Positions 32,410-49,888 of a stretch of DNA of 64,000 bases are shown in pieces. The notes beneath the pieces are model-generated. The model saw only the letters and a list, made by a program, of their open reading frames with translations, did no database searches and had not been told where the DNA came from. The position numbers and the translations under genes were made by a program. The DNA lies in the NCBI RefSeq assembly GCF_048403405.1, contig NZ_CP183129.1; one strand, 5' to 3'. The DNA comes from Escherichia coli. Lineage in GTDB: Bacteria; Pseudomonadota; Gammaproteobacteria; Enterobacterales; Enterobacteriaceae. Each line of letters begins with the position of its first letter. The first letter of the stretch is position 1.

Positions 32410-32413
32410 TGAA

Positions 32414-34109: not shown

Positions 34110-34404
34110 GCTATATTAAAGCTTTAACTTCAAGCCCCATCGAATCAAACATGGAGAGTTTTCATGAATAAACCCGTCTGTCTTGATGACTGGTTGATTG
34201 GCTTTAAAAGCTTATGCTGTACTTTGACCTTAATAGCTCTGCTAATAATGTAATAAGCAAACTCATTGTATCTATGGACATTGTACTGGAAGAAAACATT
34301 TTAAACATCAGGCAAAAAACAAAGTCACCCGATAAATAATAAGTAAACTAACATGAATCCCGTAATGAGATTCAACATCTCTATTACCCTATTTAAAGCA
34401 CAAA

Positions 34405-34430
34405 AACCCGCTCATCAGCGGGTTTTCTAC
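34405..34430 (-). terminator. tR'-like intrinsic terminator of the short late-leader transcript
   Basis: Hairpin cccgctgatgagcggg followed by tttttg on the minus strand, about 45 nt downstream of the PR'-like promoter. Confidence 0.5.
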
Positions 34431-34471
34431 TTTTTCTTAACTTCGGGTATACAAAGCCCATCGTTGAAAAA

Positions 34472-34500
34472 ATTTTATCCATATTTTTTGAAAAATGCAA
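34472..34500 (-). promoter_or_regulatory. late promoter PR'-like (-35 TTGCAT, 17-nt spacer, -10 TAAAAT) with presumed qut region
   Basis: Read on the minus strand immediately downstream of the Q stop. Confidence 0.5.
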
Positions 34501-34531
34501 GCATCACGTCGCCATCTTCGGCGAAAATCAC

Positions 34532-35284: not shown

Positions 35285-35297
35285 GCTCGTTCTCCAC

Positions 35298-36293
35298 TTA
35301 CGCCAGTACGCCTATTGCCAGCGCACGATCGATAAAACGAAATATCAGCTCCAGCTGGGAGCCATACTTCTCTTCAAATGCCACGGTATCCGCATGCAGC
35401 TCGTCGTGATGCTTTCTGCACAAAGGCAACACAAAAAGGTCATGCGCTTTTGTACCCATTCCCCCCTGACCGTGGCCTATCAGGTGGTGGGGATCATCAG
35501 CAGGTTTTCCACAACATGCGCACGGCTGCGTCTTAACCCAGCGCGTGTACTTTTCATTAACCCAGCGGTGACGTTTTGGGCGTAACATAAAAGACTCCGG
35601 CGACTCCGGATCCACTTTCAGCGCCAGCACCTTTTTCGCCTTATCCTGGATGATGCTGGTGGCAGGAACCGAAGGCACAAGGTCACTTTCCCGGGTAACA
35701 GACGGCACAACAGGCTTCGGTAATCTCAGTGCCTTACGGGCTGCACTTTCCGGTAAGGCATCCGCCAGATCATTACGAATCAGCCACCAGCACAGTTCCG
35801 GCATTGTCACAACATGACTGTCATCAAAACCGAGATCCCGACGCACAACAGACAACACCCAGCGGGCACAGTTATCCGTTGCCATTGATTCCAGCCGTTC
35901 CGTGAACTGATCGCGCAGCTGGTTATCGCAGTGCCAGCACAGACGGATTGCGCCCGGAGCGTGTCGCATTGTTGTCATATTCTCGCTGTGCCAGTCGGAA
36001 TGAGGCCACTGGCAGCCTTTTTCACGAAGTAACCAGCTTTCAAGACATTCCACGCCACCAGCACGACGGATCACTGCCTCATTGCGGAACACGGCCCGAA
36101 CGGCAGGATCATCCGCCAGCGGTTGTGATGCCGCCGGAACGGCACCACTGGCGAAAGATGAATAACGTTCCGGCTCAGGCTCCAGCAGGACACGCCCCTG
36201 CATAAACAAGGGCATCAGCTCTGAACCTGGTCTGAACAATACGATCCCCATACGCGGGGCAATTTCAGGGGTCAGTAGTGCTCTCACGGTCAC
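35298..36293 (-). CDS. DUF968-family protein (YdfU-like) with HNH-like Cys/His cluster
   Basis: 331 aa; C-terminal CACCGKPADDPHHLIGHG...CRKHHDELH. Confidence 0.65.
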   Translation of the reverse strand: MTVRALLTPEIAPRMGIVLFRPGSELMPLFMQGRVLLEPEPERYSSFASGAVPAASQPLADDPAVRAVFRNEAVIRRAGGVECLESWLLREKGCQWPHSDWHSENMTTMRHAPGAIRLCWHCDNQLRDQFTERLESMATDNCARWVLSVVRRDLGFDDSHVVTMPELCWWLIRNDLADALPESAARKALRLPKPVVPSVTRESDLVPSVPATSIIQDKAKKVLALKVDPESPESFMLRPKRHRWVNEKYTRWVKTQPCACCGKPADDPHHLIGHGQGGMGTKAHDLFVLPLCRKHHDELHADTVAFEEKYGSQLELIFRFIDRALAIGVLA

Positions 36294-36294
36294 C

Positions 36295-37122
36295 TCAATG
36301 AACGGTATCGAGCAGCTTTAACAGCTCAGGGAATCGGGATTCGAAGAAATGCGGCTGCGTCTCGCGCGGATTTGCAGGACTGGTGATGTTCTTGCCGAAC
36401 ATGCAGCCTTTCGCGGTCAGCGACCAGAATTTTTTGATGTTGTTAATCGCGGTACGACTGTATCGTTCGCGTTGTTCAACGATCCCCAGCTTCGCCATCT
36501 GGTGATATGCCTGATTAGCCGTCAGGCGGATACCATACTGCTTCAGCAGTGCACTCAGCGACAGCGTAGGGCGGCTTGAACCATCTGGCGCATCAGCAGG
36601 TGCATCAATGGCATAGATCGGCATAAGTTCAGGAAGACCAGCTACCTTTGATAATTTCTGGTATGCACCAAGTTTCGAGGAGTTTGACAGATTTAGAGTC
36701 TTTGCTGCTGATTCAAGCAGAATGACCCCGGATTTAATTTTGTCGGATGTGGTTTCTTCTGGTGATGAATTATGAAGCGCATCAAAAGTACGTATCACTT
36801 TTAAGCTGAATGCCGGGCTGATCCACATTGCATATGCATAGACCAGCTCTTTACAGACATACGTCCCACCATTGCGCCCCTGAATGGTGATGACAGGAAT
36901 ACTACGGGAATCTCCCGTAGTTTCTTCTTCCAATAATTCCACAAGAGCCTTCGTTTCAGGACGACGCATAAACTCGTGAACTTCCAGCGAACGGGAGGAG
37001 CGATTCTCACCAGCGGCAAGAAGAGCAGCTTTCTGAAGGTCGTTAAGACAGTAGTTAGATTCGAAGTACTGGCGCACAGAAACGCCATCAATTACAAGCA
37101 ACTGATTCATTGGTTTCTCCAC
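36295..37122 (-). CDS. KilA-N domain protein (antirepressor-like)
   Basis: 275 aa; N-terminal KilA-N-like region. Confidence 0.6.
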   Translation of the reverse strand: MEKPMNQLLVIDGVSVRQYFESNYCLNDLQKAALLAAGENRSSRSLEVHEFMRRPETKALVELLEEETTGDSRSIPVITIQGRNGGTYVCKELVYAYAMWISPAFSLKVIRTFDALHNSSPEETTSDKIKSGVILLESAAKTLNLSNSSKLGAYQKLSKVAGLPELMPIYAIDAPADAPDGSSRPTLSLSALLKQYGIRLTANQAYHQMAKLGIVEQRERYSRTAINNIKKFWSLTAKGCMFGKNITSPANPRETQPHFFESRFPELLKLLDTVH

Positions 37123-37272
37123 AAATTTTTATCCACGAGCGGGACTGCACTCCCTTTTCGTTGATGCAGGATGAACTTACTGCGATTTTTAATAGTTATC
37201 AAGGATACACTGTTCATAAATACAGTATCTTTAACGAGGTAATACCCAAATTTAGGGTGTTGCTCAATTCCG

Positions 37273-37668
37273 TTACCGAGTTGCTAATTTGCAACTCGCT
37301 TTTTCGTACTTACTGATAGTGATCTCGACCTTCCCCTCCGGGATAACCGGTCCCCACTCCACCAGCATTCTTTTCACCTGACTGTCGTCTTCCCACACAC
37401 CCGCGTGGGTCAGGGCGTCAAACAGCGCCTTGTTATAGTTGTCCAGATCGCGGATCCGGTTATCCGGAGGAAACAACACGATCTCCACTGAAGCAGGTGC
37501 CGACGTTGGTTTTGGCAGACGACGTAACTGCTCAACTATTGCTGCACACGCCGCGCTCTGGAATTTTCGCCCCGCCGCGCTTATCAGGCTCTTACCAGCA
37601 AACGCCCCTTTGTTGGGGTGTCGCCAGTACGTGTTCACGCTGGTCGGAAAAGGCAGGATCAGCTTCAT
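37273..37668 (-). CDS. rusA: Holliday junction resolvase RusA
   Basis: 131 aa; RDLDNYNKALFDALTHAGVWEDDSQV motif. Confidence 0.85.
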   Translation of the reverse strand: MKLILPFPTSVNTYWRHPNKGAFAGKSLISAAGRKFQSAACAAIVEQLRRLPKPTSAPASVEIVLFPPDNRIRDLDNYNKALFDALTHAGVWEDDSQVKRMLVEWGPVIPEGKVEITISKYEKASCKLATR

Positions 37669-37991
37669 ACTTTCAGGCCCCTCTCATGTAACCAGTGGGC
37701 TGCACGCAGCCTGGCGTTTTCCTCACCGGCAAGCAGTGAGCGGATAATCCCGACCGCCTCGCTGTCGTCGTCCTTCACCACGGTATGAAGCGTGATCCCC
37801 CGGGCCACACCACGCTTTATCGTGATGACGCCTTTTTTCTCCAGTGCGCGAAGATGCTCCACCGCTGCATTCACTGAACGGTATCCCAGCATGGTTGCCA
37901 CCTCCTGATTGGTTGGCGGGAAGCCACGTTCTTTCTGATAAGAAATCAGCATATCCAGCACCTGCTGCTGGCATTGAGTTAAAGTCGTCAT
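37665..37991 (-). CDS. LexA-type winged-helix DNA-binding protein (no peptidase domain)
   Basis: 108 aa; LTQCQQQVLDMLISYQKERGFPPTNQEVATMLGYRSVNAAVEHLRALEKKGVI. Confidence 0.6.
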   Translation of the reverse strand: MTTLTQCQQQVLDMLISYQKERGFPPTNQEVATMLGYRSVNAAVEHLRALEKKGVITIKRGVARGITLHTVVKDDDSEAVGIIRSLLAGEENARLRAAHWLHERGLKV

Positions 37992-38641
37992 GCCGCCATC
38001 TCCCTGACCAGTTTTTCCGCCTGCTGGCGAACCTGCGCCAGAAACGCCTCACCACATGCCTCAAGTTCATCGCGCCCGATGTAGCTGATTGCCGGTCCCT
38101 TCCAGGTCTTGTCGAAAACAGCAATAGCACCAGCGAAGAAAGCGCCTGTCGGCACCTGCTTCTCATCTTTCGGGATAAACCAGGCAGGCAGTTCAAAACC
38201 AATACGCCCGCGAATAAAAGCAATATGATCTGCATCTTCCGGCCACCACACTTCGCTGGTGGCAGCTTTGATCAGGAAAACATAGCGCCCGCCTTTATCA
38301 CGCATGGCACTGGCATGTTTCATGATGTAACGCATGCCGGTGATGTATTGCCCCTCATGCTGACTGGCGCGGCTGTATGGGGGATTACCAAAGGCAGCAC
38401 CTTTAAGCTCCGCAAGACGTTCTGACCAGTCATGCGCCAGCGCGTTGTCTTCCGCCGTGTAATACGCGGTACATTTGGCGTTATCACCGTCAGTAAACAG
38501 ATCCAGGACAAACGGGCCAAACAGGGTGTTAATTCCCCAGAAAATGTTATCCGGCGTGCGCCACTGATCGCCCACTTCCTTCAGTTCATGGGCTGGTTTG
38601 TTCCGCAGCTCCACCAGCTCCTGGCAATATTTATTACTCAT
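37988..38641 (-). CDS. phage DNA N6-adenine methyltransferase (Dam family)
   Basis: NPPY motif (GNPPYSR); start set at MSNKYCQ. Confidence 0.8.
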   Translation of the reverse strand: MSNKYCQELVELRNKPAHELKEVGDQWRTPDNIFWGINTLFGPFVLDLFTDGDNAKCTAYYTAEDNALAHDWSERLAELKGAAFGNPPYSRASQHEGQYITGMRYIMKHASAMRDKGGRYVFLIKAATSEVWWPEDADHIAFIRGRIGFELPAWFIPKDEKQVPTGAFFAGAIAVFDKTWKGPAISYIGRDELEACGEAFLAQVRQQAEKLVREMAA

Positions 38642-39129
38642 TAAGCCCCCACGTAATTCCCTGACAGATACCACTCATCACCCGATACAGCGCGCTTGCT
38701 GCTTTTCCGTAAGCACCGCTCACGACGTGCCAGAAAATTGTTTCGTTCTGGCTGGGAGTGGCTTTCACGGAATGCCGCCATCCACACGGTTGCAGCACGA
38801 CGGTATAAGCCCCTGGACTCCAGTTCTTCAGCCTGGCGGGTCAGGCACAAAATCACCCGGGGATCGTTAGTGCCGACATAGAAATTGCGCACAGGTCTGG
38901 TTTCACGAACTGGTTGTGGTTCCGGCTCCTGCGCTCTCTCAGTCAGGCGCGGGAAATGTCTGCGTGTATATCCTTCACAACGGTGAGCCACACGCCCACT
39001 CTGACGTAACTTGCTTGCAGACTGCAGAACGCGCTGCCGTGAGTAACCTGCAAAAGCATCCGCAATGTCTCCGGAAGTACACCCCGGATGGGCTTCAATG
39101 AATTTCTGAACTTCATTCAAAAGACTCAT
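38641..39129 (-). CDS. PerC-family-like transcriptional regulator
   Basis: C-terminal LESRGLYRRAATVWMAAF...RRERCLR resembles the PerC/Pch signature. Confidence 0.5.
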   Translation of the reverse strand: MSLLNEVQKFIEAHPGCTSGDIADAFAGYSRQRVLQSASKLRQSGRVAHRCEGYTRRHFPRLTERAQEPEPQPVRETRPVRNFYVGTNDPRVILCLTRQAEELESRGLYRRAATVWMAAFRESHSQPERNNFLARRERCLRKSSKRAVSGDEWYLSGNYVGA

Positions 39130-39131
39130 GA

Positions 39132-39950
39132 TTATCCCCTGAATCCTGCCGGGATCTGGCTGTAGTCCACGTTGTCGTAACTGGCTTTGAAGTACGGGTC
39201 CTCGCGTCTGGCTGCAGATACCGCAGGAACTTCCCAGGATTCTTCGAAATGACGATCCGGACCAAAGAACGTGACAGCCTGTTTCACAAATTGTGTGCCG
39301 CTGTTACCCATCGCAGATACCCAGCCCGCGTAGCGTTTCACACCTTCCAGCATGGTTTCGGGTTTTACCCCCTCATTCAAACGGGCTTTCCAGGCTTTGA
39401 AGGCTGCAGATTTTGAATTGCCACCAGCACGTTTGGGGTATGCCAGCCATGCCTGCTCAAACTCCGGAGAGTATTCCGGTCGGTTTGAACGAACTCGCAC
39501 AGACTCATCAGCAGATGCACCAACAGCTATTGGTTCATTGACTGGTTCTTTGACTGGTTCAAAAGAGTGACTGGTTCTGGGTGAATCTCCTGCACCACCC
39601 CCTGGTGCAACTCCTGCACTACCTGGTGAATTTGCTGCACCAGATAGTGAATTATTTGCACTACCCCCTAGTGAATCTCCTGCACCATCAAGATGAAGGA
39701 GATAGATATTACTTGAGTTACCTTTTTCACCTTTCCGGGTGACTTTTTTTACCAGCCCGGAATCACAAAGGGCCGCAATATGATTCATCACAGAACGTTT
39801 GCTAATCTCGCACTGGTCAGCAATATGCTGGTAGCTGGGCCAGCACTCACCCTGATCGCTGGCATTATCAGCCAGCTTGATCAGAACCAGTTTTCGCAAT
39901 GGATTACCCACTCGAATTTTCATCGCTTTAACCATCAGCTCCATACTCAT
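39132..39950 (-). CDS. replication initiation protein (O-like N-terminal wHTH; DnaT-like C-terminus)
   Basis: C-terminus ...YSQIPAGFRG parallels host DnaT ...[10 protein letters not shown] encoded at 56947..57486; start uncertain. Confidence 0.7.
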   Translation of the reverse strand: MSMELMVKAMKIRVGNPLRKLVLIKLADNASDQGECWPSYQHIADQCEISKRSVMNHIAALCDSGLVKKVTRKGEKGNSSNIYLLHLDGAGDSLGGSANNSLSGAANSPGSAGVAPGGGAGDSPRTSHSFEPVKEPVNEPIAVGASADESVRVRSNRPEYSPEFEQAWLAYPKRAGGNSKSAAFKAWKARLNEGVKPETMLEGVKRYAGWVSAMGNSGTQFVKQAVTFFGPDRHFEESWEVPAVSAARREDPYFKASYDNVDYSQIPAGFRG

Positions 39951-40183
39951 GCTGCACCTCCGAGATGCTTCATGTTTTTTCCGGAGCAAAAGGCTATAAG
40001 CGGCATACTGATGCGGTAATTACGGCCCAGCGGTTCACAAATCACCTTCTGACATTCACGGTCAACCAGGCTAACACGTAGAACATGCCCTGCAGGCGTG
40101 GTGTACCACTGCCCAACTGTAGGAATTGATGTTTTTTTACGCTGAAGCAAACGGCAAATATTGAGGATCAACGGATTAAGCAT
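39947..40183 (-). CDS. hypothetical protein (78 aa), translationally coupled in the replication operon
   Basis: Overlaps neighbouring ORFs at both ends. Confidence 0.45.
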   Translation of the reverse strand: MLNPLILNICRLLQRKKTSIPTVGQWYTTPAGHVLRVSLVDRECQKVICEPLGRNYRISMPLIAFCSGKNMKHLGGAA

Positions 40184-41012
40184 GACGATGCCCTCCGCTG
40201 ATATTCAGGAGACGGTGAATATGAAAATTAGCCTTATCCGCCAGACGAATACGTTCAGCCTGCAAGTTAAGAAGGGTTTCTACCAAAACCTGATGCGCCT
40301 GCGGATCCGAAAGAGTTACCTTGCGCAGAGCACGTAGTGCAGTTGTTACATAACTGAGTTTATGTAAGTCTTCATCATTCAGACGAGTGAGGGCTGGGAC
40401 AGTAGCCATGATGGCAGCCTCCGATAACAGTGAATTACCTTCACCACCGGAAACGCCAATTTCGCTGGTGGTGAACTGAACGGGGTTGGCGTAACCGGCG
40501 TTATCGGAAACCGGCGCACCTTTCGGTGCCCCCGTCCAGCCCACCATAATTTGGGTGTGCACAGACGCAGACGATAAAAAAGACGCTGGCGCGTCATATA
40601 TCGCCGATAACATTTCCAGGACGCCAATCCCGTCACCCGCTTTATAAGGTGCCTGAACAGTGTAACGTCCCGGAATGGCAGAATCAATGTGCTGGTGGTC
40701 CTTCACACTCAACAAAATCACGCCTGAATTTCCACAAAGGACTAAAGCACTCATGCGGGTAGTCTTTGCGAAGATAGATAACGCGCTGTGTTTCTGGTTC
40801 CCAACGAATAACATGGACATAAAGCCCTCTTCCGTCACGAAACCAGCGGTTAAGTTCCCGCACAACTCGCCCCCCACAGTCAGGTAAAGTTCTCTGTGGT
40901 TACTTACAGCCAGGTAATTTGGTAATCTGCATTCATGCCGTAACAACAGGTGTTCAGCGACACTGACCACCAGCTGTTGCGACAAACGGTTATTTGCCGT
41001 TAAACTGTTCAT
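40176..41012 (-). CDS. hypothetical protein (278 aa), translationally coupled between the CII-like and O-like genes
   Basis: ATGA overlap with the upstream gene; no recognisable motif. Confidence 0.5.
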   Translation of the reverse strand: MNSLTANNRLSQQLVVSVAEHLLLRHECRLPNYLAVSNHRELYLTVGGELCGNLTAGFVTEEGFMSMLFVGNQKHSALSIFAKTTRMSALVLCGNSGVILLSVKDHQHIDSAIPGRYTVQAPYKAGDGIGVLEMLSAIYDAPASFLSSASVHTQIMVGWTGAPKGAPVSDNAGYANPVQFTTSEIGVSGGEGNSLLSEAAIMATVPALTRLNDEDLHKLSYVTTALRALRKVTLSDPQAHQVLVETLLNLQAERIRLADKANFHIHRLLNISGGHRHA

Positions 41013-41572
41013 GCGTTAGTTTCTCCACAGACACAAAACGCCACGACGCCCGGAGCTGCACACTCGCGGGCGTCACTCTTTTCTGGAGCGCAAAAGATTT
41101 TGTAGACCAGTGCTGCATGCTCTTGGAGCTTCGAAATTGACAGATACAACTCATCATTAATTGCTGTCTGCTCGTGTGGCTCCACGACCCCATCTTCGAT
41201 TGCCGAACGAATCTGCTTTGAGTAATTCCCGATCTGTTCGATGACTTCCAGCAGGCGCTGGTTTATATCGGCGTTCTCTACTTCCTCAATTTCAGGAAGC
41301 GATACGAACACCCCACCAGCAGACTGTGCGACAGCATCCGCAATGTAGTGAGTGCCAGCCGCGCGCTGTAAAACCATTGCCCATCCCAGCGGGAAAATCT
41401 GATCGCCATCGGCACGAAGGCGGTTAAATAATGCGTTCTCTGTTACATCCAGCCAGTCAGCTGCTTCAGCGTAACCACCCGGCAACGCTGCGATAGTTTT
41501 TCTGACAGCTTTCACGTACCACTCAGGCTGTTTTTCTACTTTCCAGTGATACTTACCCACGGTTAGCCTCAT
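41009..41572 (-). CDS. CII-like regulator (YdaT-family-like)
   Basis: 187 aa, immediately downstream of the cro-like gene. Confidence 0.5.
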   Translation of the reverse strand: MRLTVGKYHWKVEKQPEWYVKAVRKTIAALPGGYAEAADWLDVTENALFNRLRADGDQIFPLGWAMVLQRAAGTHYIADAVAQSAGGVFVSLPEIEEVENADINQRLLEVIEQIGNYSKQIRSAIEDGVVEPHEQTAINDELYLSISKLQEHAALVYKIFCAPEKSDARECAAPGVVAFCVCGETNA

Positions 41573-41603
41573 CGTTCTGTGGTTAAAAATTGAAGGTGTT
41601 CTG

Positions 41604-41804
41604 TTAATCTTTCGGATAGATATCCGGTCTTAAGTCAGATTTCGTAATTGCACCTGACGTGCATTGCTCAAGTTTTTTCGCCAGCACAAAACTGGCTTTT
41701 TTATAACCATTGAAAACCAGCCGTAAGTAGCCAGGTGTTGAGCCAACTTTTCCGGCCAACTCGCCCTGCTGTTCTTTGGTTAAAGAGTCCCAATACGCTT
41801 TCAT
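41604..41804 (-). CDS. cro: Cro-like HTH regulator (YdaS-like)
   Basis: 66 aa from MKAYWDSLTKEQQGELAGKVGSTPGYLRLV...; RBS ggagg; divergent from cI. Confidence 0.7.
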   Translation of the reverse strand: MKAYWDSLTKEQQGELAGKVGSTPGYLRLVFNGYKKASFVLAKKLEQCTSGAITKSDLRPDIYPKD

Positions 41805-41826
41805 ACAATATGTACCTCCGGTATAC

Positions 41827-41854
41827 ATATTACATGATTGAAATGAACCTTCAA
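41827..41854 (-). promoter_or_regulatory. PR-like promoter (-35 TTGAAG, 16-nt spacer, -10 TAATAT)
   Basis: Read on the minus strand upstream of cro. Confidence 0.4.
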
Positions 41855-41860
41855 GATACT

Positions 41861-41877
41861 TGTACCTTATCGGTACA
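41861..41877. promoter_or_regulatory. operator-like 17-bp perfect palindrome TGTACCTTATCGGTACA
   Basis: Between the divergent cI and cro starts; related half-sites nearby and at the PL-like promoter. Confidence 0.5.
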
Positions 41878-41894
41878 AAGGTTTTAATTTCGTT

Positions 41895-42569
41895 ATGAAA
41901 ACAATCCATGACATCCGGCGGTCTAACGCCAGAAAACTGAGAGATGGTGTTGGCGGAAATTCATCCTTTGCCACCATGATTGATCGCGAGCCAACCCAAA
42001 CCAGCAGGTTTATGGGGGATGGCGCTACTAAAAATATCGGTGACAGCATGGCACGGCACATCGAAAAATGTTTCGACCTGCCTGTCGGATGGCTTGATCA
42101 AGAACACCAGACAACGAACATCACAAAAAAACCTGATGTTTCAATCACTAACAAACAAATAACGTTAGTCCCTGTCATATCATGGGTACAGGCCGGAGCA
42201 TGGAAAGAAGTTGGCTATTCTGAGGTTGATTTGAGCACAGCAGAAACGTATCCCTGCCCTGTACCCTGTGGCGAAATGACTTATATCTTGCGGGTGATTG
42301 GTGATTCAATGATTGATGAGTACCGCCCTGGAGACATGATTTTTGTTGATCCCGAAGTCCCTGCCTGCCACGGTGACGACGTTATTGCATTGATGCACGA
42401 TACAGGCGAAACCACCTTCAAGCGATTGATAGAAGATGGAACACAGCGTTATCTCAAAGCATTAAACCCAAACTGGCCTGAGCCTTACATTAAGATTAAC
42501 GGTAATTGCTCTATAATTGGTACAGTGATTTTCTCGGGAAAACCAAGAAGATACACAATAAAGGCCTAA
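41895..42569 (+). CDS. cI: CI-like repressor (HTH plus S24 LexA-like peptidase domain)
   Basis: 224 aa; Ala-Gly site in VQAGAW, Ser in GDSM, Lys in TFKRL. Confidence 0.9.
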   Translation: MKTIHDIRRSNARKLRDGVGGNSSFATMIDREPTQTSRFMGDGATKNIGDSMARHIEKCFDLPVGWLDQEHQTTNITKKPDVSITNKQITLVPVISWVQAGAWKEVGYSEVDLSTAETYPCPVPCGEMTYILRVIGDSMIDEYRPGDMIFVDPEVPACHGDDVIALMHDTGETTFKRLIEDGTQRYLKALNPNWPEPYIKINGNCSIIGTVIFSGKPRRYTIKA

Positions 42570-42582
42570 TCAATATTTATGA

Positions 42583-42604
42583 ACCTGCTTCGGCAGGTTT
42601 TTTT
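42583..42604 (+). terminator. intrinsic terminator after cI
   Basis: acctgcttcggcaggt followed by ttttttt. Confidence 0.6.
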
Positions 42605-42608
42605 ATAC

Positions 42609-42636
42609 TTGACAATGTACCCATGAGATACATAAT
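42609..42636 (+). promoter_or_regulatory. PL-like promoter (-35 TTGACA, 16-nt spacer, -10 CATAAT)
   Basis: Directly after the cI terminator, directed toward the early-left genes. Confidence 0.5.
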
Positions 42637-43039
42637 GTATCCAAAAGAAACATGAGGCAGGCAAGATTCAAACAAAATTTGGTTGTAACACGGCGTATGG
42701 CACATGCGTCGTTAGCGGTCTGGGGACGTTAAAGGGGACAATCCACTTCTTGCTCGGGCAAACAAACCAGGTAGTCGGAATGTGCAAGTCAATGATGATG
42801 CTGATAAGACGCCTAACCAGCGTGGCGATCCGGTTTGACGCCTGGGAAGAGACCAGGGTGCAACGATGAGGGCATTTATGGAGCCGCGACAAAGTGTGGT
42901 GCCGTAACTGGCTAAGTGCTCTCAGCGTTGTGGTAATCCGCGAAATGGCGCGGCGGTAAGTATGGCGGGGTTACTCTTTCCCCGTTGAGGACACCGGATT
43001 GTCAGGTTGACCATACGCCTGAGTGACAACCCCACCACA

Positions 43040-43100
43040 ACAGCCACTGCTTTGGCGGTACCAGTTTGTACACTTGCTTCCGGCTGGTACCGCTCTTTTT
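43040..43100 (+). ncRNA. DicF-like sRNA candidate ending in an intrinsic terminator
   Basis: tttggcggtaccagttt resembles the DicF core as I recall it; perfect 10-bp stem gcggtaccag/ctggtaccgc (43055..43093) followed by tcttttt. Confidence 0.4.
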
Positions 43101-43237
43101 ACAAAACAGAGAAGAGCATCACCGGACGACAGGCTCATAACCCAATCCATCCGGGCGGCTGCCACCGCAGGTGTTCTTCTCTGTTTTGTGGAGAAACCAA
43201 CCGACCTTGCAGGGTCGATATGATGAGGAGCAGCAAA

Positions 43238-43600
43238 ATGGCTAGCGAACGCAGTACTGATGTGCAGGCATTTATCGGGGAGCTGGACGGCGGCGTATTT
43301 GAAACCAAAATCGGCGCAGTTCTCAGTGAAGTCGCTTCCGGTGTGATGAACACGAAAACCAAAGGTAAGGTCTCACTCAACCTGGAAATCGAACCATTTG
43401 ATGAGAACCGTGTGAAAATCAAACACAAACTCTCATATGTTCGCCCGACTAACCGCGGGAAAATTTCCGAAGAAGACACCACCGAAACGCCGATGTATGT
43501 CAATCGCGGTGGTCGCCTGACTATTCTGCAGGAAGACCAGGGACAATTACTGACTCTTGCCGGTGAACCTGACGGAAAACTACGCGCAGCAGGTCATTAA
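43238..43600 (+). CDS. hypothetical protein (120 aa), first gene of the early-left operon
   Basis: RBS aggag 8 nt upstream of ATG GCT AGC (MASERSTDV...). Confidence 0.5.
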   Translation: MASERSTDVQAFIGELDGGVFETKIGAVLSEVASGVMNTKTKGKVSLNLEIEPFDENRVKIKHKLSYVRPTNRGKISEEDTTETPMYVNRGGRLTILQEDQGQLLTLAGEPDGKLRAAGH

Positions 43601-43665
43601 TATCGTTCTTAATTAACTGATTATTTATCTCATCACTGAATATCTTTATATAGTGAGGACTTATT

Positions 43666-44490
43666 ATGTCTCAGAACTTAGACGCAACCGCAATTAATCA
43701 AATCCATGCCCTTATTTCTGCTCAGGGTGTTAATGAAATTATCAGTAATATTGGTGCCGATGCTGTGGCATTGCCTGAGAATTTCCGCATTCATGATCTG
43801 GAAAAATTTAATTTAAATCGCTTCCGTTTCCGTGGTGCGCTTTCCACTGCCAGCATCGATGACTTTACCCGTTATTCTAAAGATCTTGCAGATGAAGGCA
43901 CCCGCTGCTTTATCGATGCTGATAATATGCGTGCCGTCAGTGTACTTAACCTGGGTACTATTGATGAACCAGGTCACGCAGATAACACCGCCACTCTCAA
44001 ACTGAAAAAGACAGCACCGTTCTCTGCCCTGTTGTCTGTTAACGGCGAGCGTAACTCCCAGAAGTCACTGGCAGAATGGATTGAAGACTGGGCCGACTAC
44101 CTTGTGGGCTTTGATGCTAATGGTGACACCATTCAGGCAACAAAAGCGGCTGCGGCAGTCCGTAAAATCACGATTGAAGCAAACCAGACCGCTGATTTTG
44201 AAGATAATGACTTCAGCGGCAAACGCTCCCTGATGGAATCTGTCGAAGCGAAGACCAAAGACATTATGCCAGTGGCATTTGAATTTAAATGCGTTCCGTT
44301 TGAAGGTCTGAAAGAACGTCCGTTTAAATTACGCCTCAGCATTATCACTGGCGATCGTCCTGTACTGGTTCTGCGCATTATTCAGCTGGAAGCGGTGCAG
44401 GAAGATATGGCTAACGAATTTCGTGATCTGCTTGTTGAGAAATTCAAAGACAGCAAAGTAGAAACCTTTATTGGTACTTTCACCGCCTGA
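43666..44490 (+). CDS. YfdQ-like protein
   Basis: 274 aa; same length and position as CPS-53 yfdQ, upstream of an HD-domain gene. Confidence 0.5.
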
Positions 44491-44617
44491 TTTCATTACT
44501 GCAAATGCCCCTGCGGGGGCATTTATGGAAACGTAATTAACTCAATAATCACCGGATGGTGAGGGCTTCCTTTTACCCAAACTCAGCGCGGTGCAGCGCA
44601 TATACGTGGAGAACAAA

Positions 44618-45154
44618 ATGTCATTTATTAAAACTTTTTCCGGGAAGCATTTTTATTATGACAAGATAAATAAAGACGACATCGTGATTAACGATATCGC
44701 GGTTTCCCTTTCAAATATCTGCCGCTTTGCCGGTCATCTTTCTCACTTCTACAGTGTCGCCCAACATGCGGTGCTTTGCAGCCAGCTGGTGCCGCAGGAA
44801 TTTGCTTTTGAAGCGTTAATGCATGATGCAACAGAAGCGTATTGCCAGGATATTCCCGCTCCACTGAAACGCCTTCTTCCTGACTATAAACGGATGGAAG
44901 AAAAAATTGACGCCGTAATCCGTGAGAAATACGGGTTACCCCCAGTTATGAGTACGCCCGTGAAATATGCCGATCTTATCATGCTGGCAACCGAACGCCG
45001 CGATCTCGGGCTTGATGATGGCTCTTTCTGGCCTGTACTGGAAGGCATCCCGGCAACAGAGATGTTCAACGTGATTCCACTGGCACCTAGCCATGCCTAC
45101 GGGATGTTTATGGAACGTTTTAACGAGTTATCGGAGTTACGCAAATGCGCATGA
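44618..45154 (+). CDS. HD-domain phosphohydrolase (YfdR-like 5'-deoxynucleotidase)
   Basis: H...HD motifs (SVAQHAVL, MHDATE); start at MSFIKTF. Confidence 0.7.
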   Translation: MSFIKTFSGKHFYYDKINKDDIVINDIAVSLSNICRFAGHLSHFYSVAQHAVLCSQLVPQEFAFEALMHDATEAYCQDIPAPLKRLLPDYKRMEEKIDAVIREKYGLPPVMSTPVKYADLIMLATERRDLGLDDGSFWPVLEGIPATEMFNVIPLAPSHAYGMFMERFNELSELRKCA

Positions 45155-45507
45155 ATGTTTTCGAAATGGAAGGGTTTCTTCGCGGGAAATGTGTACCGCG
45201 AGATCTGAAAGTGAACGAAACAAATGCTGAGTACCTGGTACGTAAATTCGACGCGCTTGAAGCTAAATGTGCGGCACTGGAAAACAAAATAATACCAGTG
45301 TCAGCTGAACTGCCACCAGCAAATGAAAGTGTTCTGTTATTTGATGCTAACGGAGAAGGCTGGCTGATTGGCTGGCGTTCTCTCTGGTACACCTGGGGAC
45401 AAAAAGAAACCGGAGAATGGCAGTGGACATTTCAGGTCGGGGACCTTGAAAACTTCAATATCACTCACTGGGCAGTAATGCCAAAAGCGCCGGAGGCTGG
45501 AGCATAA
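45145..45507 (+). CDS. YfdS-like hypothetical protein (120 aa)
   Basis: ORF overlaps the yfdR-like stop. Confidence 0.45.
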   Translation: MRMNVFEMEGFLRGKCVPRDLKVNETNAEYLVRKFDALEAKCAALENKIIPVSAELPPANESVLLFDANGEGWLIGWRSLWYTWGQKETGEWQWTFQVGDLENFNITHWAVMPKAPEAGA

Positions 45508-46127
45508 TGACCACATTTACCAATAAAGAACTGATTAAAGAAATCAAAGAACGAATCAGCAGCCTAGAGGTTCGAGACGATATTGAGCGCCGTGCTTATG
45601 AAATTGCTCTGGCATCGCTAGAAGAGGAGCCGGTGGCATGGCTGCATTCAGAAAATGGCTTAGGTATTCCGGCAATAACGAGGAGTAAAAACATTGCTGA
45701 CAGTTGGTTATCAAAGGGCTGGTATGTTCAGCCGCTATATATAGCCAAGCCAGTGCCGATGGTGCCAGATGCTCGTCCGTCTTTAAATAATGGCATAGTC
45801 GGCTTTGATGAAGGCTGGAACGCCTGCCGCGCCTCCATGCTTAATGGTGCCGAACCTGTAAGCCAGACTTATAAGTTGAACGAGCTGTCGGGCAACTCTC
45901 CGGTAACTCCGGATGGTTGGATAAGCTGTAGTGAGCGAATGCCGAACGATAAACAGTATGTTTGGTGTTGGGGTAAGTCTTACGGCTGGACTGAGTGCGA
46001 TACCTTCGAAGGGTATTACGATTGTTCGAGAAACAAATGGTGGGCAGTTACTGACAATGGGGAAGAACCGGCATCGAAAGTAACCCACTGGATGCCGCTA
46101 CCGGAGCCGCCGCAGGAGGTGAAGTAA
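45507..46127 (+). CDS. DUF551-domain protein (YfdT-like)
   Basis: C-terminal WISCSERMPNDKQYVWCW...THWMPLPEPP. Confidence 0.55.
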   Translation: MTTFTNKELIKEIKERISSLEVRDDIERRAYEIALASLEEEPVAWLHSENGLGIPAITRSKNIADSWLSKGWYVQPLYIAKPVPMVPDARPSLNNGIVGFDEGWNACRASMLNGAEPVSQTYKLNELSGNSPVTPDGWISCSERMPNDKQYVWCWGKSYGWTECDTFEGYYDCSRNKWWAVTDNGEEPASKVTHWMPLPEPPQEVK

Positions 46128-46321
46128 TGAACAACTTAATGACAACTAAACAAGTCGCCGATTTCTGTGGTGTTTCAGTATCGACAGTTCTTCGCTGGAA
46201 CAGCGTAAACAGGAGAACTGGCCAGAAATACAGGCCTGACTTTCCAGATCCTGATATTAAATCCTGCCCAAATAAATGGGCATCACACAAGATTTACAGA
46301 TTTGCGGGAGTGATTGATTAA
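46127..46321 (+). CDS. xis: AlpA/excisionase-like HTH protein
   Basis: 64 aa; MTTKQVADFCGVSVSTVLRW HTH; adjacent to the integrase module. Confidence 0.6.
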   Translation: MNNLMTTKQVADFCGVSVSTVLRWNSVNRRTGQKYRPDFPDPDIKSCPNKWASHKIYRFAGVID

Positions 46322-46597
46322 TATGTATTAGCTTAGATGTGAGCTGACACATCTATGATTAGATGCCAAACCTAATCTGAGCGTCCACTCTTTACCAAGA
46401 GCGGACGTTACCAATGACCATATGACATGAATCGATAAGATCAAAACATTATCGCCAAGAAATGTATTGATACAAATAAAATTGATTACCCCCTTACTCT
46501 TGTTGAAAAGTTAGTCGTAGAGTACCTATCGCAATGTAATCAGCTTTAATCATCTGAAAATTACTCCTTAAAAATTAGCTTTTATATACTGAACAAA

Positions 46598-47317
46598 TTA
46601 AATCTCTGTTTCTTTTCCTGTTCGGCTCAACCAATACTCCATTGTTTGAGTATGAATCTTTTCAGCGTATATTTTTTCAATTAATTTATCTCGTTTTTCT
46701 TTAATGACTTTACGCAGTGAATCATATAACATAAAAAAACGTTCATCATCTTCCTCATTATTACCGTAATTTATTTGATTGAGTTCTGAAAAAATATGAT
46801 AGCACCTTTTTTTCTTGGTCCCCGGCAATATTAAAACCAAGCCGCATTGATCATATTCAAATTCACCTTTATGGGCAGCAAAGTTATGTCTAACATTCAT
46901 AATAGAATCATGTAAATCTCTGTATTTTTCTGGCACATGCTTTCTCTGCAATGTGAATCGACGCCCTTTCGCCTCTGTAAAACACTTACCGTAAGTAACA
47001 ACTTTTGATATAAATAAAGACTTTAATATTAGATTCTTTTCTAAATCAGGATAAATAAAGTGTTGTTCTCTATTAATGTTATTACAAATGTTTTTTATTA
47101 TATTCTCCCAACCAATAACATTCCGAAGATCTTTATCCAGCAACTGTAAGGCCACATATTGTTCTACAAAGCGGCCTTTTAAAGGTATTCGTGGTAATAT
47201 TACACCTTTCTGCTTATAAACTCTTTCTATCGTATTATCTGGATATTGGATCTTCCTTATTTCTATTCCGTCTTCTTCTGATACCCTTACTAATGGTTCA
47301 TTTTTTAACTTTGACAT
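46598..47317 (-). CDS. hypothetical protein (239 aa) in an AT-rich moron between xis and int
   Basis: Visibly AT-rich relative to neighbours; own upstream intergenic region of 283 bp; R-x5-H motif at residues 143-149. Confidence 0.6.
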   Translation of the reverse strand: MSKLKNEPLVRVSEEDGIEIRKIQYPDNTIERVYKQKGVILPRIPLKGRFVEQYVALQLLDKDLRNVIGWENIIKNICNNINREQHFIYPDLEKNLILKSLFISKVVTYGKCFTEAKGRRFTLQRKHVPEKYRDLHDSIMNVRHNFAAHKGEFEYDQCGLVLILPGTKKKRCYHIFSELNQINYGNNEEDDERFFMLYDSLRKVIKEKRDKLIEKIYAEKIHTQTMEYWLSRTGKETEI

Positions 47318-47602
47318 GTTAACCCTCTTAAATAAAAAACTAACTTTATCCAGATAGTGTCCGTTAAGAAGTTTTCGTTACAACTAAGTTTCTAGGTAAA
47401 TCATGAATCAACCTATAGTATCAAAAACATTTGGTGGTAAACATCTGCATTTATCAAATAGCAGGAGCGATTTAGGGGCATAGGGATAGTGATGATATCT
47501 ATACCCGTGCCCTCTTATGTCAACACAATGGCGTAAACTTAACGCTCACATCTCGCTCAAAGTGTGCTAGGAGATTTGGTTATGTTCAGGTGATACAAAC
47601 CG

Positions 47603-48826
47603 TCAGTTTGAATCAGAGATAGTACAATTAACAATCGATTCAACCCTCTTCCACCATGCCAGGTAAGCTTTACGCTGTTCTTCTAGATAATCGCTCTTAT
47701 CATAAACTTGCCATACCCCTGGCAGCTTATGACCAAGCATAATTTCTGCGATATGAGGCGCAGTAAGATCAGAAAAATTTGTTCGTGCTGTCCGTCTCAA
47801 GTCATGAAGAGACCAATGAGGGAATTGATATCCTAAACGCCGCCACGCGTACTGCATTAAATTGTAAGGCAGCGACTGTAATGATGTCCTACCGACTGGC
47901 TCCCTGCTTCCTTCCTTAGTAAAAAGCATATCGGAACCGTTGTTCATAGAGATAACGTATTTTATAAGCTCTTCAACCGGTTCAATAATGGGCCGCTTTA
48001 GCGGTTCGCCTGTTATGTCCCCTGTCTTATGTCGTTCAGGTGGTACAGTCCATACCTTATTTATGAAATCAAAATCACCCACCCTAGCAGTAATTAGCTC
48101 CGAACTACGGCAACCAAAATGCAGTAATAGTTTAATGAAGGCCCTGTATTTGGGAACCATTCTAGAGCCATCGATCGCAGCATAAAGAATTTTAATTTCA
48201 TCGTGTGTCAGAAACCGTTTCTTCTGACCTTTACGGATATCCATATCTTTACCCGTGATATCCGACAGCGGGCGAGTTTCAATAAGCTTTCTCTTATACG
48301 CCCAGACATGGGCCTGCTTTGCGTTAATTAGCAATCGGTCTGCTATTGCTGGAGTCTTAGTGCTAAGAGGCTCCAGGACTTCTAACCAATCATGCAATGT
48401 AGCTGCATCGTGAGGGATATTCCCGATTTTAGAGAACAGGTGCAGCTCAAACGAGCGGAGTATCTGTTCAGAACTCTTTTTATTTTTTACACAATATGCT
48501 TCATACCAGGCACGGATCACAGACTCTACCGTCATGGCTTCAGTAGCTTTTCGTTTTTCAGCCTGCTTGACCAATCGTGGATTACGGTTTGACTCGAGTT
48601 CACCACGGAGACGGATAACTTCTTCTCTGGCCTCTTTTAATCCAGTTGCCGGGTAAGTTCCGATATCAAGACGCTCACCTTTCCCTGCCCATTGATAACG
48701 ATATTGGAACACTACGCGACCTTTCGGTGATACTCTGACAGACAGACCATCACGATCGGATTTAACCAAAACCTTATCACGTTCCTTTCCAACGACTGAA
48801 CGCAACCACGCATCAGACAGCGCCAT
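47603..48826 (-). CDS. int: tyrosine integrase (P4-type)
   Basis: 407 aa; catalytic R (GCRSSEL), H-x-x-R (HDLRRT) and C-terminal Y. Confidence 0.95.
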   Translation of the reverse strand: MALSDAWLRSVVGKERDKVLVKSDRDGLSVRVSPKGRVVFQYRYQWAGKGERLDIGTYPATGLKEAREEVIRLRGELESNRNPRLVKQAEKRKATEAMTVESVIRAWYEAYCVKNKKSSEQILRSFELHLFSKIGNIPHDAATLHDWLEVLEPLSTKTPAIADRLLINAKQAHVWAYKRKLIETRPLSDITGKDMDIRKGQKKRFLTHDEIKILYAAIDGSRMVPKYRAFIKLLLHFGCRSSELITARVGDFDFINKVWTVPPERHKTGDITGEPLKRPIIEPVEELIKYVISMNNGSDMLFTKEGSREPVGRTSLQSLPYNLMQYAWRRLGYQFPHWSLHDLRRTARTNFSDLTAPHIAEIMLGHKLPGVWQVYDKSDYLEEQRKAYLAWWKRVESIVNCTISDSN

Positions 48827-49055
48827 TACTCACCTTGTACAAATCGCAAAACACCTCTGCTGCTTTGTACATTATGTACAAGCATATGTACAGATTTTTG
48901 ATGAAAGCAACCTGATCGATTTAAAGTTACATGAAAGAATTTTCAATTAAAGAAGCCACATAACCATATGTATTTAAATGAGTTATATAACCAGACCTCA
49001 ATTAACTGAAAGGATTTTGAAAGAGTAAAAGAGCTTTAATTTGGGATTAATTATT

Positions 49056-49121
49056 GGGGTGAGAAATAATGGCAAAAGTGCGGCGCTTCGCCACCTCTTG
49101 CAAATAAGGAGACAACGTCAT
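49056..49121 (-). pseudogene. prfC: orphaned original 5' end of prfC (first 22 codons, [22 protein letters not shown]), with its native upstream region to 49210
   Basis: Minus-strand ATG at 49119..49121; frame ends in phage DNA after about 24 codons. Confidence 0.7.
49057..49070. repeat. att core copy (integrase-proximal junction)
   Basis: Direct repeat of 822..835, 230 bp beyond the integrase start. Confidence 0.6.
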
Positions 49122-49210
49122 AATTCTTTCTTCTTGAGTAAGCGGCATCGCGCCGCGCTTGTTGAAAACGAAAAATTGCGGCTATTTTACCCATCAACGG
49201 GGGGAGGCAA

Positions 49211-49888
49211 TCAGTGTTTACACAGGAGCTGCTCCAGTTCGTGCAACGAAGAAACGGTCCAGGTGGGCGCGATGCCTTCTGGTTGCTCGCGATTGTGCGC
49301 ATTCAGCCAGCAGGTCGCAAGCCCGGCGTTGATGCCACCGAGAATATCGGACTCGGCAGTGTCGCCAACCATCAGCACGCGTGAACGGTCAGGATTGCCC
49401 GCCTGTTCCAGCGCATAATCGAAAATTTTCTTATTCGGTTTGGCAACGCCAACTTCTTCGGAAATCACCAGCAAATCGAAATAATCACGCAGGCCCGTGC
49501 GTTCCAGACGCACTTGCTGCAAGGCGCTAAAGCCGTTGGTGATGATGCCAATTTTAGCGTTGCCACGAATGGCGTTAAGCAGAGAAACCGCGCCCGGCAG
49601 CGGCGTACAGATTTCCGCCATCGCATTAATAAAGGCTTCGTTGAGTTTACCCGGCTCGACGTTCAGCCGTTCGGCCCAGCTCTCAAACCGCCCGTGCTGA
49701 AGCTGTAATGAAGTGATCGCGCCGTTTTGATAATCCACCCACAGTGGCTTGTTAACGGCCTGATAGTCCTGAAAATCTTCAGCGGTAAAGGTGACGCTGT
49801 AATCAAGAAACATCCGCTGCAGGCCGGTGAATGAGTCAAAGGTAAACAGCGTTTCATCGGCATCAAAGAAAATCCAGTCCCACTTCAT
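49211..49888 (-). CDS. yjjG: pyrimidine 5'-nucleotidase YjjG (HAD family)
   Basis: 225 aa; DxD motif FFDADETL. Confidence 0.9.

Follow-up and report, generated by a model that had tools for sequence, protein, structure and literature searches.

What do the genes at positions 43,238–46,127 do for the prophage that carries them, and can they be called a host-replication-control module, as the first-pass annotation had proposed? The window in which we studied this question was a 64,000-nucleotide stretch of Escherichia coli DNA, where the genes belong to the early-left (pL) operon of an intact-looking lambdoid prophage that occupies prfC.

Gene content of the cluster

The region encodes YfdP, YfdQ (DUF2303), YfdR (HD domain), YfdS (DUF551) and a 206-residue DUF551 protein, and the open reading frames lie where the first-pass annotation had placed them (43,238–43,600, 43,666–44,490, 44,618–45,154, 45,145–45,507 and 45,507–46,127, all on the + strand). 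The first gene, left unnamed in that annotation, is yfdP. The likeness to YfdQ, YfdR and YfdS, previously proposed from the letters of the sequence, was borne out at full length by BLASTP against the K-12 MG1655 proteins, with identities of 99.2% for YfdP (120/120 residues), 98.9% for YfdQ (274/274), 98.9% for YfdR (178/178) and 99.2% for YfdS (120/120). At the DNA level identity to K-12 was 98.3% across 43,219–45,631, and the order yfdP-yfdQ-yfdR-yfdS is that of K-12 CPS-53. The cluster genes are already known: annotations name them in E. coli genomes by the thousand, with a match in 3966 of 5426 complete genomes. [quoted passage not shown]

YfdP (120 residues, phrog_204) carries the Pfam family PF27127, “YfdP”, in precomputed annotation, and a fold search with its AF2 model (pLDDT 83) gave no informative match. 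YfdQ (274 residues, Pfam E=2.7e-92) passes DUF2303 with 309 bits against a cut-off of 26.6, over profile positions 2–269 of 269. A homologue of YfdQ is the recently deposited PDB entry 9o7m, which has 36 chains (E=4e-44); the fold search found no relative of YfdQ apart from this entry, and literature searches found no publication for it. We considered whether 9o7m could be a virion map and rejected this: MET23-P3 is the nearest phage, and its capsid protein matches other entries and not 9o7m. Neither the YfdQ nor the YfdP model had a fold match to recombinases or Gam, and both proteins are orphan folds.

The yfdR gene (178 residues, phrog_318 E=5e-110) encodes, by annotation, an HD-domain 5'-deoxynucleotidase. 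A mechanically called reading frame would begin at GTG 44,591 and give 187 residues; we used the annotated K-12 start, ATG 44,618. YfdR retains H50, H69-D70, E73 and D78 of the H...HD...D metal-binding motif, its two substitutions relative to K-12 are conservative and lie outside that motif, and it aligns to Atu1052 (PDB 2gz4, E=4e-14). The Pfam YfbR-like/HD score was weak (24.2 bits, cut-off 25.9) and the NCBIfam equivalog score was 19.9 against a cut-off of 122. By these profile scores YfdR is predicted to be a distant HD relative and not a YfbR equivalog.

The yfdS gene, which shares 10 nt with the 3' end of yfdR, encodes 120 residues (phrog_583) with an N-terminal helical segment followed by DUF551, the latter scoring marginally (22.6 bits, cut-off 22). 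The start codon of the last gene of the cluster overlaps the yfdS stop codon as ATGA. Pfam (DUF551, 67.4 bits), BLASTP and PHROG comparisons indicated that its 206-residue product is a mosaic, with the YfdT N-terminus (residues 1–42, 95%), an unrelated middle and a C-terminal DUF551; the joint lies at about 45,632. The remaining 164 residues are unrelated to YfdT, and there is thus no full-length orthologue. The description of the locus as a yfdQ/R/S/T-type cluster accordingly stood for Q, R and S and failed for the last gene, which matches YfdT over residues 1–42 only. In phage Ayreon the 206-residue gene is an intact reading frame of the same length, and phages cdtI and 2H10 also cover the full query. 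Annotations vary among the phages with this module and are in part mistaken; their records mislabel the 206-residue gene “valyl-tRNA synthetase”.

Organization of the early-left operon

Upstream of the cluster is a CI-type repressor gene (41,895–42,569, + strand) of the YmfK/CohE-like kind, whose product controls the operon and has a LexA-type S24 peptidase domain (Pfam Peptidase_S24, E=1.5e-26). The gene is annotated ymfK in the YDC107 prophage, which is 99.8% identical by BLAST, with indels. A terminator-like hairpin lies 3' of the repressor gene (42,581–42,600) and a strong promoter stands directly after it. This pL-type early-left promoter and its operators occupy 42,609–42,653 on the + strand; the promoter scan identified TTGACA-16-CATAAT, with 11/12 matches, and two 19-bp operator palindromes (42,615–42,633 and 42,635–42,653) overlap it. 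The pattern ATGTAYC-N5-GRTACAT occurs five times in the window, where 0.51 matches would be expected, and each occurrence is at the pL-type promoter or in the cI/cro intergenic region (41,810, 41,843 and 41,860).

The genes yfdR, yfdS, the 206-residue gene and xis are joined by overlapping stop and start codons. The excisionase gene xis (46,127–46,321, + strand; 64 residues; phrog_1553, E=6e-36) is the last of the operon, and its start overlaps the stop of the 206-residue gene as ATGA. The excisionase matched HTH_17/MerR weakly in Pfam, and BLASTP against the K-12 MG1655 proteins found it unrelated to TorI. Between xis and int this prophage carries a 239-residue orphan gene as cargo. Its replication module consists of an HTH_36/DnaD_N-type initiator only, without a helicase or a loader.

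The cluster had been said to stand in place of lambda-type recombination genes, and the gene content supported this. No exonuclease, annealing protein, SSB or RecBCD inhibitor (including Gam/Abc2) was identified by Pfam, PHROG and NCBIfam scans of the reading frames from cI to int, and RusA, in the nin region, is the only recombination gene that the prophage carries. Thirteen Chi sites fall within 27.8–45.4 kb (17.6 kb), where 0.4 would be expected, and 9/13 are in the active orientation. Of the 14 Chi sites in the prophage as a whole, 10 lie on the strand that is active when entry is from the right cos end, with cos placed solely by the position of the terminase genes. The LLS group of Zheng et al. 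(2025) is marked by the lack of a Rec module, by numerous Chi sites gathered toward the right end in active orientation and by growth that host RecBCD enhances, and this prophage, Chi-rich and with no Rec module, has the sequence features of that group.

A structured RNA in the operon leader

In passing we noticed an undescribed structured RNA, supported by covariation, in the operon leader (42,683–42,935, + strand). It has a core at 42,683–42,860 and a 3' extension hairpin reaching to about 42,930, a size of about 180–250 nt and about 10 helices. The covariance model R1 scored 189.8 bits (E=1e-49), and the 56-pair structure was 98.2% paired with 10 compensatory pairs, compared with 33–41% paired in slid controls. 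Homologues were found in P7/P1, phiV10-like phages and mEp390; the RNA is common to the P1/P7 ban operon, and it abuts tRNA genes in P1-like and phiV10-like phages. Searches of Rfam 15 over 41,500–49,500 gave no match to the leader RNA at E<=1, those on the leader alone gave only chance-level matches (E 2–7), and literature searches for the sequence found nothing relevant. The covariance model located no second copy downstream of pR in the window; the RNA is single copy.

Other identities for this RNA were considered. It is not a tRNA, as ARAGORN called none. AgvB, AsxR and Pas sRNAs were also rejected, since those sit in the late region and not at pL; the location of AgvB and AsxR is the PR' moron site. 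A coding function was rejected too: only short, poorly conserved reading frames were called, in one phage record, and the compensatory base changes favor RNA over coding.

The remainder of the leader contains further conserved elements. A second block (42,938–43,033, + strand; leader positions 339–434) was 81% identical by blastn to the P7 sequence immediately 3' of the C1 operator Op(ban). An intrinsic-terminator-like hairpin follows at 43,054–43,100 (+ strand), read from the sequence as GGCGGTACCAG...CTGGTACCGC then TCTTTTT. It forms in the minimum free energy fold of the leader (z=-6.6) and, with a loop of more than 8 nt, was not called by the terminator scan. The segment at 43,101–43,237 (+ strand) comprises, from its sequence and fold, two hairpins, one long and perfect (43,101–43,189) and one small, with the Shine-Dalgarno sequence GAGGAG before yfdP, and is kept in 76/77 related viral contigs.

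Does the cluster control host replication?

The link between YfdR, DnaA and inhibition of replication cited in the first-pass annotation agrees with the study of Noguchi and Katayama (2016; PMC4776307). In K-12, excess YfdQ and YfdR with either YfdS or YfdT, supplied in multicopy, lowered initiation at oriC, and YfdR bound DnaA domain I (Phe46) in competition with DiaA and DnaB (PMC4776307). Pull-downs in the same work showed no strong binding of YfdQ, YfdS or YfdT to YfdR or DnaA. The literature describes K-12 YfdR as a dNMP phosphohydrolase with an HD domain and low activity. Q, R and S, which make up a minimal set for inhibition at oriC, are all present in this prophage at 99% identity.

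The label “host-replication-control module” nevertheless exceeds this evidence, which supports the functional reading in part only: the published effect appeared solely on overexpression, deletion of yfdQRST left initiation unchanged and the authors allowed for an artefact (PMC4776307). In the literature that we found, no phage phenotype was reported for these genes. We also note that yfdP was dispensable for the replication effect (PMC4776307), yet it is always linked to yfdQ.

The best explanation, which we favor tentatively, is that this repressor-controlled early-left operon damps DnaA-dependent host initiation. In related viral contigs P, Q and R are a fixed block (YfdP in 77/77, YfdR in 75/76). 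Upon induction or infection the operon would be derepressed, and YfdR, aided by YfdQ and a DUF551 protein, would damp initiation at the host origin. Damped host initiation could leave DnaB and DnaC free for a phage whose only replication protein is an initiator of the HTH_36/DnaD_N type.

An alternative is that YfdP and YfdQ are a DNA-transaction module, acting in binding, protection or as a replication/recombination accessory, with YfdR a later add-on and the DnaA phenotype a side effect of overproduction. In distant phages YfdP-YfdQ occurs with no HD protein beside it, which indicates that cooperation between Q and R cannot be the ancestral role of YfdQ. The pair is conserved across Xanthomonas CP2-like podophages and metagenomic phages, and in CP2 and MET23-P3 it shares an operon with DUF1351, Erf, exonuclease and SSB genes. 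The deeply conserved unit is YfdP-YfdQ, probably an older two-gene unit. The DUF2303 family of YfdQ is a large one, with 1768 clusters at 50% identity and a single domain throughout, the 36-chain 9o7m was deposited as an assembly that is not part of a virion map, and K-12 yfdQ mutants are mildly sensitive to MMS and H2O2, as far as citing literature relays it. These observations are consistent with a DNA-transaction role, which we nonetheless consider somewhat unlikely. We are similarly doubtful of a joint proposal that takes in both the leader and the gene pair. In it, the leader RNA, the first to be transcribed from pL, may be common to many phages and could take RNA polymerase through the leader terminator in cis (a put-like function, not put ancestry), or accumulate as a stable early ncRNA, and YfdP-YfdQ may be an early module of large oligomers with orphan folds, conserved between podophages of Xanthomonas and lambdoid phages and with a real target other than DnaA.

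It is improbable, in our judgment, that the operon serves mainly nucleotide metabolism or counter-defence, with YfdR as an enzyme that removes phosphate from dNMPs, or from a nucleotide that is modified or serves in signalling, and with accessory roles for the rest. Host-takeover or anti-defence genes are common in early-left regions. The HD motif of YfdR is intact, the protein is annotated as a 5'-deoxynucleotidase, and one distant YfdP-YfdQ operon includes a dNMP kinase gene; nucleotidase activity of YfdR is also reported in the literature. Against this reading, PADLOC gave no match for any protein, in a library that holds defence systems and not counter-defence proteins. With zero PADLOC matches, membership in a defence system was rejected.

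We regard as very unlikely a stress-tolerance module that the prophage expresses to the benefit of the lysogen, a role proposed for K-12 CPS-53 (H2O2, acid). K-12 becomes more sensitive to H2O2 when CPS-53, yfdQ or yfdS is deleted (Wang et al. 2010, as relayed by a citing source), and SrsR, which binds at the yfdO/yfdP junction of K-12, increases yfdPQ mRNA during stationary phase, but here the promoter is covered by two repressor operators and followed by the leader terminator, so that the operon should be silent in a lysogen. The junction bound by SrsR is, moreover, a K-12 deletion scar that is absent from this prophage, in which homology to K-12 begins at 43,219 and yfdO-like DNA is 3.3 kb away. 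Control by SrsR was rejected here because its binding region is that deletion junction.

Comparison with known systems

K-12 CPS-53 is a deletion remnant. Since its homology to this prophage begins 19 nt upstream of yfdP, it is without the repressor gene, pL promoter, leader RNA and terminator. Its last gene has the YfdT C-terminus, whereas here a DUF551 C-terminus follows after codon 42. The integration sites also differ, being argW for CPS-53 and prfC here, as do the unrelated excisionases. The native promoter, operators and leader, lost from K-12, are retained in this prophage and in plaque-forming relatives such as Ayreon and cdtI, which makes these the right system in which to ask whether YfdR shuts off host initiation during phage development, a question beyond the reach of the original authors, whose material was a cryptic remnant. 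Something new could also be learned from the leader RNA and the YfdP-YfdQ pair.

Phages LLS, ST64B and phiNP (Zheng, Casjens et al. 2025) likewise have the yfdP/yfdQ/HD-phosphatase trio in the early-left operon and, like this prophage, no Exo, SSAP, SSB or RecBCD inhibitor; there are 14 Chi sites in this prophage and 23 in LLS. The module including the leader occurs in plaque-forming phages (Ayreon, cdtI, 2H10, mEp460, SfV and Stx2c phages). In Ayreon, cdtI, 2H10 and most Stx2c phages the entire 3.76 kb, leader through xis, is 96–98% identical in DNA, whereas SfV and mEp460 cover only about 70–73% of it. The cargo between xis and int is a 729-residue gene in Ayreon and the 239-residue orphan here.

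The highly mosaic region of yfdS and the 206-residue gene can be compared with the Ea22/ead region of lambda, which has a like position just upstream of xis. The lambda proteins have a coiled-coil N-terminus and exchangeable C-terminal domains, DUF551 among them, and this build resembles the short conserved N-terminus and portable DUF551 of YfdS and the 206-residue protein. Neither of the latter matched Ead/Ea22 in Pfam. A pro-lysogenic role has been described in the literature for Ea22 of lambda and Stx phages.

The leader RNA, finally, resembles HK022 put RNA in its setting: it lies 3' of a repressor-controlled early promoter and 5' of an intrinsic terminator, in a phage without an N gene. 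An identity with put was rejected, as neither blast nor the covariance model found a match in the HK022 immunity region. The put RNA is about 70 nt with two stems, compared with about 181–250 nt and about 10 helices for the leader RNA, and whereas copies of put lie downstream of both pL and pR and act on the zinc-binding domain of the RNA polymerase beta' subunit, the leader RNA is present in a single copy.

Genes of the Cluster and Their Relationship to K-12

The five closely spaced ORFs at 43238–46127 lie on the + strand. The first four were yfdP (43238–43600, 120 aa, 99.2% identity to K-12 YfdP), yfdQ (43666–44490, 274 aa, 98.9%), yfdR (44618–45154, 178 aa, 98.9%) and yfdS (45145–45507, 120 aa, 99.2%), each aligning with its K-12 counterpart over its full length. 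For yfdR, the mechanical ORF begins at a GTG (44591), and the ATG at 44618 is the annotated K-12 start. Pfam searches assigned YfdQ to DUF2303 (E = 2.7e-92), YfdR weakly to YfbR-like/HD proteins and YfdS marginally to DUF551, with a strong DUF551 match for the product of the fifth, mosaic gene (45507–46127, 206 aa). This gene is followed directly by the excisionase gene xis (46127–46321, + strand, 64 aa), and the overlaps of 1–10 nt among the last four genes (yfdR, yfdS, the 206-aa gene and xis) indicate that they are translationally coupled.

The Pfam matches and K-12 alignments (98.9–99.2%) confirmed the first-pass annotation in its description of a 274-aa YfdQ-like protein, an HD-type YfdR-like protein, a 120-aa protein and a DUF551 protein. 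Its naming of the cluster as yfdQ/R/S/T was correct for Q, R and S, but the first gene is yfdP and the last is a mosaic rather than yfdT; these were the only corrections needed. The cluster is real and correctly identified, but already known. The stretch was present in 3966 of 5426 complete E. coli genomes by megablast, which also showed 100% identity of the cluster DNA in E. coli strain YDC107 and 98.3% identity to K-12 MG1655 over 43219–45631, where the matching genes are annotated as yfdP, yfdQ, yfdR, “phage protein” (yfdS) and yfdT.

The 206-aa protein resembled K-12 YfdT in residues 1–42 only, the remainder being different and ending in DUF551. Its ORF was uninterrupted and equally long in Ayreon, a plaque-forming phage, and phages cdtI and 2H10 matched the whole length of the gene query. 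The gene is labeled “valyl-tRNA synthetase” in the Ayreon and GenBank cdtI records, and RefSeq gives the ORF in YDC107 as two pseudogene fragments; both look like annotation errors.

Prophage Setting

The cluster belongs to a lambdoid prophage with 99.8% identity to one in YDC107. About 770 bp of the tail-gene region (18212–18981) was missing from the YDC107 prophage, an indel that separates two long segments of the BLAST alignment. Integration occurred at the 5' end of prfC, with a 14-bp core repeat at 822–835 and 49057–49070. The displaced native prfC start (49057–49121) remains as a fragment beside int, and a new start is supplied by the phage (822–883).

The gene order from int (47603–48826, - strand), at the prophage end, is int, a 239-aa orphan, xis, the DUF551 mosaic gene, yfdS, yfdR, yfdQ, yfdP, a 590-nt leader and an S24-type repressor gene (41895–42569). 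The six genes from xis to yfdP are all on the + strand, transcription running from yfdP to xis. The orphan (46598–47317, - strand, 37% GC) had phrog_8440, of unknown function, as its sole match, with none in Pfam, NCBIfam, PADLOC or the PDB; since Ayreon has a 729-aa gene at this position, the slot is a variable cargo (moron) site. Past the repressor gene come leftward-reading genes, namely cro (YdaS-like), cII (CP76), Ash, an HTH_36/DnaD_N-type replication initiator, PerC, Dam, a LexA-DNA-binding-like protein, RusA, KilA-N, DUF968 and Q, and then the lysis and structural genes. The replication module apparently consists of this single initiator (39132–39950, - strand), with no helicase or helicase-loader gene, so the phage would have to recruit host DnaB/DnaC.

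The Early-Left Promoter and Its Leader RNA

Immediately past the terminator of the repressor gene (42581–42600), TTGACA-16-CATAAT (42609–42636) gives the region its best match to a sigma-70 promoter. Five copies of a 19-bp palindrome, ATGTAYC-N5-GRTACAT, are present in the 64-kb window, where 0.51 would be expected; three lie between cI and cro and two on the early-left promoter (42615 and 42635). These operator palindromes identify the promoter as a repressor-controlled pL, and on this sequence evidence the yfd genes would be early lytic genes whose expression should be off in a lysogen. In K-12, by contrast, the promoter, operators and leader are all gone, and homology starts at 43219, where a deletion scar has fused yfdP with a truncated yfdO. 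SrsR control has been reported at this yfdO/yfdP scar in K-12; as the SrsR site is the deletion scar itself, such control was ruled out for the present operon.

The leader between pL and yfdP, which belongs to the operon although it lies beyond the coordinates given for the cluster, contained no convincing ORF, and its fold was much stronger than those of shuffled sequences (z = -6.6). Its + strand carries a conserved structured RNA (42683–42935, core 42683–42860) with a structure of 56 pairs. Its core has 77–82% identity to non-coding DNA of otherwise unrelated phages. The element lies between a CAU-anticodon tRNA and the ban helicase gene in P1, P7 and D6, adjoins the 5' end of tRNA-Arg(UCU) in phiV10-like podophages and, as a more divergent copy, occupies the same pL-leader position in mEp390, a lambdoid phage with other immunity and other early-left genes. 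Its orientation was that of local transcription in every case. The structure, of about 10 helices, was 98.2% paired over 13 sequences, with 10 compensatory pairs, compared to 33–41% in slid controls; the support from covariation is genuine but slim, as only four or five lineages are represented. In searches with a covariance model, the window yielded a single copy (189.8 bits) and HK022 none, and Rfam gave no match.

A second block of the leader (42938–43033, + strand) has 81% identity to P7 DNA directly following the C1 operator Op(ban) (L005 153–249), so that the pL leader has two separate segments in common with the P1/P7 ban leader, in a different order. An intrinsic terminator (43054–43100, + strand), read from sequence and fold, is followed directly by a long near-perfect hairpin (43101–43189, + strand), and this part of the leader was kept in 76 of 77 related contigs. 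Recurrent hairpins with the closing sequence ACAAC...GUUGUGG were seen in both the present leader and that of mEp390. No N-like gene accounts for transcription past the terminator to yfdP.

Identification of the leader RNA with the sRNAs AgvB, AsxR or Pas was ruled out, as those map to the late region, with AgvB and AsxR occupying the PR' moron site, as was a relationship to HK022 put, to which it has no homology. Our working idea is that the RNA is a candidate cis element carrying RNA polymerase through the leader terminator in a phage that has no N gene or, alternatively, a candidate stable early ncRNA freed by tRNA-type processing.

Possible Function of the Yfd Proteins

The first-pass annotation cited a link of K-12 yfdQRST to inhibition of replication initiation through YfdR and DnaA, which is accurate with respect to Noguchi and Katayama (2016). 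Those authors found the cluster through its suppression of hda-185 in multicopy. Extra copies inhibited initiation in wild type, dnaAcos, seqA, DARS and diaA backgrounds, and extracts inhibited oriC replication in vitro. Deletion gave no initiation phenotype, and strong binding to YfdR or DnaA was not seen for YfdQ, S or T. They cautioned that overproduction might have created the effect as an artefact and suggested an ancestral, lambda P-like role in favoring phage over host replication. The label “host-replication-control module” fairly reflects a single overexpression study and is not an established role.

YfdQ, YfdR and YfdS are present in the window at about 99% identity to K-12, and the reading we rank first is that the operon would serve as an early host-takeover unit. 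YfdR, aided by YfdQ and a DUF551 protein, would bind domain I of DnaA and reduce initiations at oriC. We infer that this would suit a phage whose own contribution is limited to an initiator and which borrows DnaB/DnaC. We hold this functional reading only tentatively, as somewhat short of an even chance, because all the evidence is from overproduced K-12 remnant genes and because the phylogenetic unit (YfdP-YfdQ) differs from the genetic unit (Q-R-S/T).

Conservation of the genes was counted over 80 related viral contigs (denominators 76–77). YfdP, YfdQ and YfdR formed a fixed block (YfdP in 77/77, YfdR in 75/76), followed by a mosaic of YfdS (50/76), the K-12-type YfdT C-terminus (35/76) and the present DUF551 C-terminus (24/76). 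Outside the enterobacterial lambdoids, the YfdP-YfdQ pair alone was retained. Xanthomonas phages CP2 and MET23-P3 have adjacent YfdP (39% identity) and YfdQ (about 40%) homologues at the upstream end of an early cluster, followed by DUF1351, Erf, exonuclease and SSB genes (CP2, L127 2639–5468). All three informative contexts from divergent metagenomic phages had a PF27127 “YfdP” gene directly 5' of a DUF2303 gene, and an HD protein did not follow the pair. In two such phages (L209 and L211), the pair was downstream of cI-like repressors. Neighbors encoding ANT-domain or dNMP-kinase proteins were seen in two cases among the phages with the pair but no HD protein. DUF2303 comprises 1768 clusters at 50% identity, and nearly all of its 150 best-scoring members are stand-alone proteins of about 270 aa.

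The main rival explanation is that YfdP-YfdQ is a DNA-transaction or protection module to which YfdR was a later lambdoid addition; we consider this rather unlikely, though not far-fetched. PDB entry 9o7m, “YfdQ Protein”, comprises 36 chains; its protein is homologous to YfdQ and comes from a CP2-like (Xanthomonas/Xylella) phage. Its absence from a structure library frozen on 2026-04-08 marks it as very recent, and our literature search found no paper for it. The idea that it belongs to a virion reconstruction was rejected.

An enzyme-centered role in nucleotide metabolism or counter-defence appears improbable. YfdR keeps H50, H69-D70, E73 and D78 and aligns with the HD protein Atu1052; the defence-system models matched no protein of the cluster. 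A role in lysogen stress tolerance is highly improbable, being disfavored by the operators on pL and the leader terminator. We regard the leader RNA and the YfdP-YfdQ pair as the leads to pursue.

Chi Sites and the Rec-Less Lambdoid Type

No exonuclease, annealing protein, SSB or RecBCD inhibitor was found in the prophage, in which RusA is the sole recombination gene, and the proposal that the yfd genes stand in place of lambda-type recombination genes thus holds. The prophage has 14 Chi sites, 13 of them at 27.8–45.4 kb (17.6 kb; sites 31111–45313), where composition predicts 0.4. This region is the right arm (early and lysis genes), reckoned from the terminase/cos end; the 30 kb of structural genes have a single site. 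The active strand for RecBCD entry at the right cos end carries 9 of the 13 right-arm sites and 10 of the 14 overall.

Zheng, Casjens, Smith et al. (2025) reported that 22% of their lambdoid panel is without a Rec module and that such phages are enriched in Chi; in their early-left operons, yfdP, yfdQ and HD-phosphatase homologues are described as “fairly common”. The present prophage matches this type in both its lack of a Rec module and its richness in Chi.
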